IMG/VR virus record: IMGVR_UViG_3300038393_000457
Location: 1 to 64,000 of that record
DNA from: a virus
Lineage: Duplodnaviria > Caudoviricetes
Direction: 5' to 3' (one strand)
DNA length: 64,000 bases
The translations under genes and the position numbers were made by a program. The notes under the pieces were generated by a model. It worked only from the letters and a program-made list of their open reading frames with translations, was not told where the DNA came from and searched no databases. Positions 30,856 through 43,847 of this stretch are shown piece by piece (within the stretch, counting starts at the first letter, position 1; the number at the start of each line of letters is the position of its first letter).

Positions 30856-31075
30856 GGTGGATGGCACCGGCGCGCGGCGGGGACTAAGGTATGAATTGGT
30901 AACATCTTACATGGAATAAATTTGCTTCTATGGTGTAACGGCAGCACGGTGTCCTTATAAGACATAAGCGGTAGATGACCGCGCGGAACAGGTTCGAATC
31001 CTGTTAGAAGTACCAATCCTGGAGATCGGCTAGATTAGCTGGAACGGCACGGTTCGAAACCGTGATCCACTACCA
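30856..31075 (+). pseudogene. Sec/Ser-like long-variable-arm tRNA split at the anticodon by a 129-nt insert containing tRNA-Ile
   Basis: ggtggat (30856) pairs with atccact-ACCA (31075); ggggact...aatcct anticodon stem flanks the insert. Confidence 0.6.
30924..31015 (+). tRNA. trnI: tRNA-Ile(TAT) with long variable arm
   Basis: gtgtc-cttataa-gacat; gcggt-agatg-accgc variable hairpin; ACCA. Confidence 0.85.
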
Positions 31076-33210: not shown

Positions 33211-33798
33211 GTGCAAATTCTTTCACTTGACAAGTCTGGGTATCCTAGAGGGTTTATTACGATCCAAAATGCAATCGAAATGATTGCGAAGGATAAAATC
33301 CTTTGGAGTCTTGGTAACCCAATTGCAACTTATCGTGGTGGTTATAACAATGATGGTGTGCGTTCCGTAATCGAAACGCCACCTATCATTGCTATCACCG
33401 GAACAGAGTTTGCAAAACAAAAGCGTTTTCCTAAAGTTATCCTGACGAACAATTCGCTTTTTAGTAGGGATCGTCATATTTGCGCTTATTGTGGTGGAAA
33501 ATTCATGCCACGAAAGCTATCACGTGATCATGTAATACCTGTTTCTCGTGGTGGTCCGAATACCTGGAAGAATGTGGTGACTGCATGTATCCCATGTAAC
33601 ACCAAGAAGGATAATCGGACCCCAGAAGAAGCTGGAATGAAACTTCTGTATGTTCCTTATGAGCCCTCTCATGCGGAACATCTAATATTGAAGAATCGCA
33701 ACATCACAGAAGATCAAATGGATTATCTATCAAACCATGTGTCGCCGGAGTTTCTCCGGCGCATGACGGATGTAGAATTATTTGGTGAGGATAAATAA
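33211..33798 (+). CDS. HNH endonuclease (McrA/HNH_5-like)
   Basis: RDRHICAYCG...DHVIPVSRGG.NTWKNVVTACIPCN.KK. Confidence 0.9.
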   Translation: MQILSLDKSGYPRGFITIQNAIEMIAKDKILWSLGNPIATYRGGYNNDGVRSVIETPPIIAITGTEFAKQKRFPKVILTNNSLFSRDRHICAYCGGKFMPRKLSRDHVIPVSRGGPNTWKNVVTACIPCNTKKDNRTPEEAGMKLLYVPYEPSHAEHLILKNRNITEDQMDYLSNHVSPEFLRRMTDVELFGEDK

Positions 33799-35503: not shown

Positions 35504-35539
35504 ATTATAATGTCCCTATAGTGAAACTGAATAGTCAAT

Positions 35540-35617
35540 GGTGCTGTATCCCTCGACGCTACGAACGTCGTGAAAGGTAATTGGATCATGCAGGTTCGAC
35601 CCCTGTCAGCATCTCCA
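35540..35617 (+). tRNA. D-armless tRNA-Arg(ACG)-like RNA
   Basis: ggtgctg/cagcatc TCCA; cgacg-ctacgaa-cgtcg; only 7 nt between acceptor and anticodon stems. Confidence 0.7.
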
Positions 35618-36194
35618 TTATTCTATTAGGTTCTCCATATAGAAGCTTAATAGATTTTTTTACTTGATCTAATTTCTCCTGTTGTTTGATGACAACGATT
35701 GGATTCTTTGGATCAAGAAATATGTTAAGATTAGGAAGATAGAAATCTGGAAAGTATTTGTGTTCTTTCCCATTTTTATCGATCCAAGGAATTGATGTTT
35801 TTGGTTGTTCCCAAATAATATTGGCTTCATCAAGTAATTGGGCCATTTTTACTTCCCAACCAGAATCAAAGATAAAGTTTTTGTAAATTTGACGTTTTAT
35901 ACCGGAAGCATTCTTTCTTTTGACCGCGATGAAACATTGGTCAGAACAAGTTGTTCCAATTTTCTTTTGTGACGCAAAATATTTTTGGCATACAGAACAT
36001 TGTCGAAAATATACCTTGGAATTGGGTCCACAAACATGTCTCTTGCTGAAGAAGCCTCTTTTACCAATTGTTGTTGATTTTATCCTTGTATAATTACGAC
36101 CGCGTTTAAGGTTATTGTATGTTGCGGAACAAGATGAACCACAGAATTTTCTTTTTAATGGTATAAGTAAGTTGCAATTTAAACAATTATGCAT
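35586..36194 (-). CDS. PD-(D/E)XK-type homing endonuclease with N-terminal Zn-binding motifs
   Basis: CxxC repeats; DSGWE...KYFPDFYLP..NIFLDPKN. Confidence 0.8.
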   Translation of the reverse strand: MHNCLNCNLLIPLKRKFCGSSCSATYNNLKRGRNYTRIKSTTIGKRGFFSKRHVCGPNSKVYFRQCSVCQKYFASQKKIGTTCSDQCFIAVKRKNASGIKRQIYKNFIFDSGWEVKMAQLLDEANIIWEQPKTSIPWIDKNGKEHKYFPDFYLPNLNIFLDPKNPIVVIKQQEKLDQVKKSIKLLYGEPNRIMEMLTGVEPA

Positions 36195-37454: not shown

Positions 37455-37529
37455 ACGGGAGTAGCTCAGTGAAAGAGCGTCTGGCATCAGGTCAGAAGGT
37501 CGGTGGTTCAAGTCCATCCTTCCGTGCCA
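37455..37529 (+). tRNA. tRNA with apparent TCA anticodon (A33, G37); suppressor-like or degenerate
   Basis: tctgg-catcagg-tcaga; acgggag/cttccgt; GCCA. Confidence 0.6.
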
Positions 37530-39380: not shown

Positions 39381-39437
39381 ACGGTGGATTTCCCTAAGTA
39401 AGCATAGGTAAGACTTGCTTAAAGGAAATCCACCGTG
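39381..39437 (+). promoter_or_regulatory. second copy of the RBS/GTG-sequestering hairpin
   Basis: acggtggatttcc-ctaagtaag / cttgctta-aaggaaatccaccgt. Confidence 0.7.
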
Positions 39438-40064
39438 TTCTATACGATTTATAAGATAACTAATAAAATTAATGGAAAATATTACATTGGTAAACATCAA
39501 ACTGAAAATTTAGATGATGGTTATTTTGGTTCTGGTAAATTAATCAAAAAAGCCATTAAAAAATATGGCATAGAAAATTTTATTAAAGAAATCTTGTTCG
39601 TGTATGATAATGAACAAGAAATGAATGAGAAAGAAAAGGAATTAGTAACCTTAAGAGAAGATAGTTATAACCTTTGTCCTGGTGGACAAGGTGGATTTGG
39701 TTATATTAATAAAATAATATCGAAAGATGATAGATCAAAATATGGTAAAATTGGCGGCATCAAAATATCCACAGAAATTCAAACAAAAGGATTGTTCTTC
39801 AAAAATCTTACCAACAAATTTTCTAAAGGAAATCCATACCGATTTACTAAAGAAAATAATTACATGGCAGGTAAACAACATTCCTTAGAAGTGAAGAAAA
39901 AAATTGGTGAAGCGAATTCTTTACATCAGTCTGGTAAAAAGAATTCTCAATATGGTACTTGTTGGATATATCATCCACAACTAGGTAATAAGAAGATTGA
40001 CAAAGAAGAACTAAATAAATATATTGAATTGGGCTATATTAAAGGCCGTCAAAAGTGGTATTAG
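39435..40064 (+). CDS. Seg-like GIY-YIG homing endonuclease, paralog of 186-827
   Basis: IYKITNKINGKYYIGKH; shared C-terminus QYGTCWIYHPQLGNKKIDK. Confidence 0.9.
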   Translation: MFYTIYKITNKINGKYYIGKHQTENLDDGYFGSGKLIKKAIKKYGIENFIKEILFVYDNEQEMNEKEKELVTLREDSYNLCPGGQGGFGYINKIISKDDRSKYGKIGGIKISTEIQTKGLFFKNLTNKFSKGNPYRFTKENNYMAGKQHSLEVKKKIGEANSLHQSGKKNSQYGTCWIYHPQLGNKKIDKEELNKYIELGYIKGRQKWY

Positions 40065-42960: not shown

Positions 42961-43036
42961 GGTTCCGAAGAGCAAAGGATAGAGCCTCTTCCCTGTCTAG
43001 GAAGAGTAGGGGGTTTGAGTCCCCCCGGAATCGCCA
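42961..43036 (+). tRNA. trnD: tRNA-Asp(GTC), weak D stem
   Basis: cttcc-ctgtcta-ggaag; GCCA. Confidence 0.8.
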
Positions 43037-43213
43037 TTTTCTCCACGCGGCAGGAAGCGGGGTCCACTGAAACAGCCCGTAAGGATAAAAGGAATTAGGA
43101 GTCCAGTAGAATAAGATTTCATTTGAAAGTTGCCGTCTGAGACGGATTTGGTATAACTGCGGTGGATATTATTCGTGAAGCTTGTCCCTTGGTCCTTGGA
43201 GAAAGTTATTGAC

Positions 43214-43286
43214 GTGGGCGTGGTGTAGTGGTAGCACAGGAGATTGTGATTCTCCAGGGATGGGTTCGAACCCCAAGCTCACCCCA
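43214..43286 (+). tRNA. trnH: tRNA-His(GTG)
   Basis: ggaga-ttgtgat-tctcc; CCCA. Confidence 0.85.
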
Positions 43287-43294
43287 GATTTTTA

Positions 43295-43745
43295 TGATGT
43301 TTGGAAAGACTGTATAATGAGTAGGAATAATTTGAAGGCGACCTAAGGATAGGGTAGTCCCGCGTGTAGTCACAGGTCCAATTAAAGTCTCCCATCTTAT
43401 TGAAAATTATACATCTTCTCCGACTGCCTGCACATTACGGTGTGTGATTGGAGCATCTGGTATTCCAATGTCTAGAAATAGGCGGCAGAGCAATTGAACA
43501 AATAAGTAGAATAGGAAATTCCCAACGGAGGGTGAGTGTCAACCACTGGAATGACATTTGCAAGTCTAGTATACATGAGTGGCCAGCCGTAAGGTAAAGC
43601 GCACGTGAAGGTCGACAACAGCCCGTATGTACTCTTTTGAAGTGCTATGCTACCCAAGAGTGGTAGGAAAGTAATAAGAAGGATGATGACGGTCCCCTGG
43701 ATAACCGAAAGCCGAAGAACGTCAGACTTCCAACGTGTATATTAG
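43295..43745 (+). ncRNA. about 450-nt ornate ncRNA candidate between tRNA-His and tRNA-Cys
   Basis: multiple nested domains, no credible ORF. Confidence 0.65.
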
Positions 43746-43769
43746 AGACTGCAAGGGAATATTTTTTTT

Positions 43770-43847
43770 GGTGCCGTGGACTGAATGGATTTAGGCACGA
43801 GACTGCAAATCTCGTTTATGTGGGTTCAAGTCCCACCGGCTCCTCCA
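43770..43847 (+). tRNA. trnC: tRNA-Cys(GCA)
   Basis: cgaga-ctgcaaa-tctcg; TCCA. Confidence 0.9.

Follow-up and report, generated by a model that had tools for sequence, protein, structure and literature searches.

Few large RNAs of complex fold are known from bacteria and phages (ribosomal RNA, RNase P, group I/II introns, OLE, GOLLD, ROOL and raiA), and nearly every one of them brought unusual biochemistry or architecture. Two of them, ROOL and GOLLD, are large RNAs found near phage tRNA islands (PMC5737381; 10.1101/2024.12.08.627333). ROOL is a multi-junction, pseudoknotted RNA of phages and prophages, which often has tRNA islands as neighbours and may be transcribed together with them (PMC5737381; 10.1101/2024.12.08.627333). 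GOLLD adjoins tRNAs, sometimes contains a tRNA, and its expression goes up at lysis; both RNAs assemble as homo-oligomeric RNA-only nanocages (10.1101/2024.12.08.627333). [quoted passage not shown]

Here we describe an element that lies between two tRNA genes in a 64-kb stretch of phage DNA, referred to below as the window. The initial annotation of this DNA proposed a large structured non-coding RNA within a phage tRNA array, a proposal that conservation and covariation now support, and judged its size and setting to fit the GOLLD/ROOL class, with membership left unconfirmed; the tRNA-array setting matches, while family membership and size fail. As with ROOL (RF03087), the RNA is phage-encoded, near a tRNA island, large, multi-junction and pseudoknotted; however, the ROOL covariance model does not match it, it measures ~460 nt against a ROOL average of 581 nt, and with two pseudoknots and about four junctions it does not reach the size and complexity described for that family. 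Few ROOL nucleotides are conserved at 97% or above; in the window RNA, by contrast, a block of 34 nt and many junction strands are invariant. GOLLD (RF01998) is likewise an ornate phage RNA next to tRNAs, but its covariance model gives no match either, it exceeds 800 nt compared with the 483-nt interval found here, and its universally conserved part is the 3' half, whereas in the window RNA it is the 5' third that is most conserved.

T4 RNAC and RNAD offer a different likeness, being non-tRNA RNAs inside a tRNA cluster that share the orientation of the tRNAs and have tRNA processing sites at their borders. They are only ~120-140 nt long. RNase P RNA, tmRNA and group I/II introns resemble the window RNA in size (350-500 nt), long-range pseudoknots and GNRA loops; however, the window RNA has no Rfam match, is not called as a tmRNA by ARAGORN, lacks the P4-type CR-I/CR-V pairing of RNase P RNA and, unlike the introns, interrupts no gene.

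Genomic setting of the element

The window makes up the first 64 kb of an IMG/VR phage contig that is 83.8 kb long and was judged to be 47% complete. It carries a module for replication and nucleotide metabolism, encoding a DNA polymerase, a DnaB-like helicase, a primase, a UvsX-like recombinase, ribonucleotide reductase, NAD salvage enzymes and ThyX. ARAGORN predicts 31 tRNA genes, all on the + strand, with 27 located within 30.9-54.4 kb and four at the window start. The element sits inside this array, on the same strand as all 31 tRNAs, and its 483-nt interval (43287-43769) is bounded by tRNA-His(GUG) (43214-43286, +; ARAGORN, and 43.1 bits with the Rfam tRNA model) and tRNA-Cys(GCA) (43770-43847, +; ARAGORN and Rfam). 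By synteny, tRNA-His is the upstream neighbour in all five lineages in which the element was found, and tRNA-Cys the downstream neighbour, also in five of five (in L090 at 1023-1095). Other tRNA pairs of the array are spaced by 6-60 nt only, and the gap between tRNA-Cys and the thyX start is 13 nt.

Dispersed among the tRNAs, at 33211-33798, 35586-36194 (-) and 39435-40064, are endonuclease genes that lie in AT-rich patches (GC 0.29-0.33); the types at these places are HNH, PD-(D/E)XK-like (endonuclease I/TnsA-like) and GIY-YIG/NUMOD3. A tRNA-Asp(GUC) at 42961-43033 was missed by ARAGORN and scores 32.6 bits with the Rfam tRNA model (gathering threshold 29); a tRNA-Asp occupies the equivalent place in L087, L088, L092 and L093. 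The 180 nt that lie between this gene and tRNA-His (43034-43213) are GC-rich (0.505), conserved in L088 and L090, and include a terminator-like hairpin at 43133-43145. This spacer has in common with the RNA the 11-mer AACAGCCCGTA (43071 in the spacer, 43617 in the RNA) and the 12-mer AGTAGAATA[A/G]GA (43105 and 43505), and it could be a second small RNA or a duplication remnant.

Two further peculiarities of the array concern the tRNAs themselves. A 75-nt tRNA with the anticodon UCA (37455-37529), labelled tRNA-SeC by ARAGORN, could be an opal suppressor, so that some phage genes may undergo TGA readthrough or recoding. Unusually long tRNAs of 92-98 nt, with large variable regions or inserts, are present at 935-1032, 30924-31015 and 35523-35617, examples being Phe-GAA (98 nt), Ile-UAU (92 nt) and Arg-ACG (95 nt).

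Homologues and their distribution

Homologues were obtained from the contigs of four close syntenic relatives (68-73% identity), found by searching 5.8 billion proteins with ThyX, together with one metagenome match to an invariant 20-mer; the set leaves out 12 contigs that carry an identical thyX. Full-length copies are present at L088:5130-5596 (identical to L089), L090:584-1022 and L092:1719-2272 (identical to L093), and a shorter, rearranged copy of 266 nt at L087:5639-5904. With the window phage included, the known family thus extends to five lineages, comprising four full-length sequences and one reduced form. In every homologue the element lies between tRNA-His and tRNA-Cys, upstream of thyX, yunG, a gene for a 270-aa protein and cpn10. 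In L088 a NUMOD3 homing-endonuclease gene (L088:4520-5131) is inserted exactly between tRNA-His and the conserved leader of the element, and the RNA is unchanged.

No RNA homologue was found at 80 thyX loci and four loci of the 270-aa neighbour from IMG/VR. Further relatives of ThyX (P0006, P0009-P0011) and of the 270-aa protein (P0125, P0126) are not syntenic, and relatives of the 147-aa upstream protein were not detectable. Viral, metagenome and genome collections were also scanned with the invariant 20-22-mer and with the pattern GCAGAGCAAT..ACGGAGGGT. L092 is the sole real match; the others (L091, L099 and L104-L147) fall by chance in DNA that is unrelated and for the most part GC-rich.

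Conservation, coding potential and searches against known RNA families

Over aligned positions, the RNA is 79-84% identical to its homologues, while the third codon positions of thyX are only 57% identical between the window and L088 and 44-46% identical for L090, L093 and L087. Within the RNA, the 34 nt at 43347-43380 are 100% identical across the five lineages. Substitutions lack a 3-base periodicity (p = 0.25-0.55) and indels among homologues are mostly not multiples of three. The span between the two tRNAs had been described as free of open reading frames, and indeed the longest in 43287-43769 are of 49 aa (+) and 61 aa (-) with translation table 11, or 65 aa if TGA is read as tryptophan, and the longest frames occupy different positions from lineage to lineage. 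Taking into consideration that (i) the RNA is more conserved than thyX third positions, (ii) periodicity is absent, (iii) indels break the frame and (iv) the open reading frames are not fixed in position, the interval is subject to strong purifying selection, and the target of that selection is not a protein.

A cmscan of 43287-43769 against all 4227 families of Rfam 15 gave no match at the gathering threshold. At E ≤ 10 over 18 kb only tRNAs were recovered, none of them inside the interval, and with the laxest filters on a 1.1-kb slice still no family was matched there, at the same E-value limit. The four homologous loci (E ≤ 1) gave nothing but tRNAs. A search with the GOLLD and ROOL models had been recommended for the class assignment, and cmscan finds neither, down to E ≤ 10 in the window RNA and to E ≤ 1 in its homologues. 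By blastn, the RNA has no match in 50,697 phage records, among which T4 should be included, and it has no paralogue within the window. In a non-exhaustive search of the literature on large phage RNAs of such a kind, no description of this RNA was found.

Short resemblances to other RNAs were considered and rejected. RNase P-like GGAAAG/ACAG motifs have no model match and a wrong strand logic, an 11-nt GAAA receptor (CCUAAG...UAUGG) occurs in the window phage only, and the resemblance to 16S rRNA (GGUAGUCC, GCCGUAA) is limited to 7-8-mers. The 10-mer GAGACTGCAA is present twice, in the tail of the RNA (43745-43754) and in the anticodon arm of tRNA-Cys (43799-43808); as a mimic of that arm it was discarded, being not conserved in L092 and expected by chance.

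Comparative support for the secondary structure

The folding energy of the single sequence is ordinary (z = -0.21 on the + strand and +0.88 on the - strand), no better than chance, so the case for structure rests on comparative evidence. Structure positions are numbered from 43287 = 1, and the main alignment, A10, is the unedited whole-length MAFFT alignment of four sequences (window, L088, L090 and L092). On A10, a model of 72 pairs has 95.8% standard pairs, as opposed to 35-46% when the partners are slid. Covariation analysis, the check that had been proposed for this locus, also favours a real structure: both sides changed in 25 pairs (2-5 with slid partners), a number that none of 500 shuffles reaches, with a covariation score of 0.463 against 0.202 ± 0.031, statistics that are fragile because they come from few sequences (four full-length and one reduced form) and from a shuffle control that ignores the relatedness of the sequences.

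An unbiased scan of A10 for stacks, each with four or more column pairs and canonical pairing in every one of the four sequences, found six stacks with at least two covarying pairs, where 0.03 would be expected from column shuffles; the sixth (156-160/342-346) was set aside as a likely alignment artefact. For positions 128-275, a covariance model was built from the window, L088 and L090 only. It aligned the left-out L092 over its full length with 75 bits (E = 1.6e-14) and no non-standard pairs flagged among the pairs that were aligned, and had no second match in the window. Paired cells in the alignment of positions 128-275 amount to 95.7%, against 30-47% with partners slid. RNAalifold mispredicts P3a and P3b on raw MAFFT slices, the cause being 1-nt register shifts.

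Conserved G.U pairs in P5, P1, the invariant junction and delta would be A.C mismatches on the opposite strand, and therefore the RNA is assigned to the + strand. For several pyrimidine-rich strands there are alternative purine-rich partners; one case is P1, which is in competition with a 3-bp YGG pairing in the 3' domain. In total, the model contains 17 helices, two pseudoknots, about four junctions and GNRA loops.

Architecture of the RNA

All features given here are on the + strand. A conserved leader, TTTATGATGTT (43291-43301), opens the element and is seen in the alignments, even in L088 despite the endonuclease gene inserted upstream; a processing site or a -10-like box are its candidate roles. 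The motif is neither repeated nor enriched elsewhere in the window, and its reading as a repeated promoter motif was dropped. P1 begins 14-20 nt after tRNA-His and pairs UUGGAA (43301-43306) with UUCCAA (43728-43733). This helix (helix 1 of the A10 model, 15-20/442-447) is 100% paired, with one pair that is U-A, U.G or C-G depending on the lineage. P1 crosses the alpha-delta stack described below and adjoins delta, which gives an H-type pseudoknot geometry with domain-sized loops.

The P2 domain (43311-43413; outer arms 43311-18/43406-13) is a long, irregular stem, variable in sequence, with the invariant junction as its cap. Because this stem cannot be aligned column by column, its support comes from separate folds of each lineage, in which the closing stems have unrelated sequences (UGUAUAAU/AUUAUACA, AAUUUCGC/GCGAAAUU, CGAAU/AUUCG and ACCGUAC/GUACGGU); L087 also supplies a fully compensated P2. 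The cap is a three-way junction of 34 nt (43347-43380), identical in L087, L088, L090 and L092 and present in a single copy in the window. It is laid out as GGAU-A-GGGUAGUCCC-GC-GUGUAGUCAC-AG-GUCC, in which GGG/CCC and GUG/CAC are predicted to form two 3-bp hairpins with UAGU loops. As P3 and the junction never vary, their pairing is predicted without covariation; a role of the junction at the RNA level is suggested by its place at the tip of the covarying P2 stem.

A conserved pyrimidine-rich joining strand, UCUUCUCCGA (43414-43423), follows. It was identified from the alignment and the folds, does not covary, and may pair with CGGAGGG at 43526-32. The P3 domain (43424-43488), closed by CUGC/GCAG in both the A10 and the three-sequence models, contains P3a (43431-33/43439-42), P3b (AUUGGA/UCCAAU, 43447-52/43464-69), which is fully compensated as ACCAAGA/UCUUGGU in L087, and P3c (43471-74/43479-82), which has a GAAA loop. 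The stack scan adds S1 (43443-45/43453-55; 157-159/167-169), which forms a classical H-type pseudoknot with P3b.

The 5' strand of alpha, UUCCC, is followed by the invariant ACGGAGGGU (together 43519-43533), which includes a Shine-Dalgarno-like GGAGG. Alpha (43519-23/43755-59; 233-237/469-473) has a U-A pair that becomes C-G in L090 and L092, and a local CCC/GGG hairpin is an alternative to it. Next comes the P5 hairpin GUGUCA/UGACAU (43536-43557; 250-255/266-271), 100% paired, with compensatory changes in three of its six pairs (RNAalifold, unedited MAFFT slice, alignment A3) and a conserved 10-nt loop, ACCACUGGAA. No conserved palindromic loop was seen in the RNA: CCACUGG of the P5 loop is only imperfectly self-complementary, and a U-to-A change in L092 breaks this.

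Three helices found by the stack scan bring the 3' tail back onto the strand that follows P5: beta (43558-62/43750-54; 272-276/464-468), gamma (43565-68/43743-46; 279-282/457-460) and delta (43570-77/43734-41; 284-291/448-455), the last being the best stack in the scan, with six of its eight pairs covarying. Their 5' strands span 43558-43577, and the 3' strands, including that of alpha, which continues the delta stack, span 43734-43759. Beta, gamma and delta correspond to helices 13-14 of the A10 model, where all 17 pairs are formed (100%) and 11 changed on both sides. The 3' tail thus pairs back over ~22 bp, from alpha to delta, and encloses P5 and the 3' domain. The latter (43578-43727), closed by delta, has a junction topology that is in part modelled; it comprises a 2-bp closure (G293-C314 and Y294-G313; 43579-80/43599-600), P6 with a GNRA loop (43586-88/43593-95), and P7 (43650-54/43662-66), enclosed by P8, together with conserved junction strands.

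In the window, L088, L090 and L092, base-pairing of the tail ends 8-11 nt short of tRNA-Cys +1, and what remains is an AU-rich linker (43760-43769, 10 nt; 8-11 nt in homologues) that adjoins this +1 position. The 3' limit first given for the RNA, 43745, was consequently too short: the tail is paired up to 43759, conserved sequence reaches tRNA-Cys at 43770, and the boundary moves to 43769. Between the helices there are invariant joining strands, namely UCUUCUCCGA, AGAGCAAU, ACGGAGGGU, the loop ACCACUGGAA, AGYGGYCA, GAAGC and GAACGUCAGAC. Such strands, combined with GNRA loops and pseudoknots, are typical of RNAs that have a tight tertiary fold.

Nine helices had been proposed from the window sequence, and the four homologues bear out four of them: ttggaa/ttccaa, the suspected terminal helix, is P1; ctgcc/ggcag with its three hairpins is P3 with P3a, P3b and P3c; gtgtca/tgacat is P5, with its three covarying pairs; and ctacc/ggtag is P7. 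The other five are specific to the window phage. For all five (agact/agtct, gacct/aggtc, cttatt/aataag, tacat/atgta and tgacg/cgtca) the partners are absent or non-complementary in L088, L090 or L092; in addition, gacct clashes with GGAU/GUCC of the invariant junction and tacat with the covarying delta helix.

The 266-nt form of L087 folds well alone (z = -2.66). It retains P2 with the junction, P3, P3a, P3b and a terminal helix, AAUUC/GAAUU, and keeps the CCCUACGGAGGG hairpin relocated to its 5' end; P1, P5 and the 3' domain are missing. Because the 5' elements are kept without the rest, this form suggests that the 5' core is a separable module.

Discussion

Large phage RNAs near tRNA islands are a known category, and we read the element as a new family belonging to it. 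The explanation that we consider likely, taken as a whole, is that it is the gene of an uncatalogued RNA family, the product of which is excised from the tRNA transcript and acts in trans. The gene would occupy 43296-43769 (+) and encode a conserved, non-coding, highly folded RNA of ~460 nt, so far not catalogued, in a small clade of large lytic phages. In the predicted fold, a long P2 stem carries the 34-nt junction as its cap, a four-helix P3 domain holds an H-type pseudoknot, and hairpin P5 follows; the 3' part would be a domain closed by the 22-bp alpha-delta stack with the 3' tail, to which the 6-bp P1 pseudoknot would tie the 5' end.

The RNA would be transcribed together with the tRNA array and freed by tRNA-processing nucleases. 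RNase P generally matures the 5' ends of tRNAs, and its cut at tRNA-Cys +1 would create the 3' end of the RNA, while the 5' end would arise from trimming of the tRNA-His 3' trailer or from an endonuclease cut in the conserved leader. By analogy with T4 RNAC and RNAD, the precedent for excision from a tRNA transcript, the RNA is probably cut from the tRNA transcript by RNase P. During infection the pre-folded RNA would then act in trans, which is the weakest step of the proposal and is modelled on how RNAs of the GOLLD/ROOL type are thought to work. The invariant junction and the conserved junction strands may provide a specific binding or active surface for a protein, an RNA or further copies of the RNA itself.

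This trans-acting, pre-folded RNA is the reading we favour, and its main rivals are a ribozyme and a processing role in cis. A ribozyme, whether it cleaves itself or works on a different RNA (a tRNA or rRNA, for example), would account for the many invariant unpaired junction nucleotides, the pseudoknots and GNRA loops, and a core more strictly conserved than the neighbouring protein genes. We nevertheless regard it as unlikely, since the Rfam models of hammerhead, twister, HDV-like, group I/II intron and RNase P RNAs are all unmatched, and a hammerhead-like CUGAUGA...GAAA stretch (43683-43713), rejected as a candidate, is missing in L092 and kept only imperfectly in L088 and L090.

We attach a similarly low probability to a purely cis-acting element, that is, a spacer that guides or times the processing of the neighbouring tRNAs, or an exonuclease block, with no function once excised. 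The element is always found between the same two tRNAs and adjoins tRNA-Cys, and both leader and linker are conserved, as this reading would predict. However, a spacer needs no 17 helices, two pseudoknots, 34-nt invariant junction and many invariant joining strands; 6-60 nt suffice between the other tRNA pairs of the array; and in L088 an endonuclease gene parts the RNA from tRNA-His and leaves the RNA unaltered.

That the RNA is a divergent true homologue of GOLLD or ROOL appears very improbable. The genomic habit, a large structured RNA beside phage tRNAs, is the same (PMC5737381; 10.1101/2024.12.08.627333), and GNRA loops and pseudoknots are present, but RF01998 and RF03087 stay unmatched at E ≤ 10 with lax filters on the 1.1-kb slice, and at E ≤ 1 in the homologues, and ~460 nt is short of both the ROOL average and the GOLLD size given above. 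Slightly less credible still is the absence of any functional RNA, the interval being a neutral spacer, a decayed gene or a DNA site (an origin, a homing-endonuclease target or a recombination site). An ordinary folding z-score agrees with this, homing endonucleases are scattered in the array, and the 34-bp invariant block could be a DNA recognition site; yet thyX third codon positions have diverged further than this sequence, the helices are maintained through dozens of compensatory changes, the strand is set by the G.U pairs, and the stem that carries the invariant block at its tip has covarying closing arms, so that covariation largely refutes it. Least probable of all is a coding function of the interval, for a single small protein or several and perhaps with an altered genetic code. 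In its favour, four of four lineages have a short frame starting AUGAUGUUUGGA at the conserved leader, and the array holds the UCA-anticodon tRNA, but these frames end after 7-14 codons at different places with no upstream Shine-Dalgarno sequence, and codon periodicity is absent, indels shift the frame, and the longest frames, at most 65 aa with TGA as tryptophan, are not positionally conserved.

Returning to the favoured trans-acting RNA, a bolder version of it is possible, and we offer it tentatively: a third independent class, beside GOLLD and ROOL, that has its own sophisticated function (catalysis, self-assembly, or the capture of a translation- or tRNA-related factor as a decoy or sponge), with the twin-UAGU junction as active or recognition site and the 266-nt L087 form as minimal functional core.

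The known distribution of the family is narrow, covering five uncultivated lineages with no cultured host. To the short list of large RNAs with complex folds, the window RNA would be a compact addition, of ~460 nt with two pseudoknots, and its 34-nt core has stayed unchanged while the neighbouring proteins diverged to ~70% identity. As a second-generation hint, non-tRNA RNAs may be regularly carried by phage tRNA islands. Since the RNA is of a size that suits probing and cryo-EM, and nature provides a 266-nt form for comparison, it would offer a tractable way into the role that such an RNA plays during infection.
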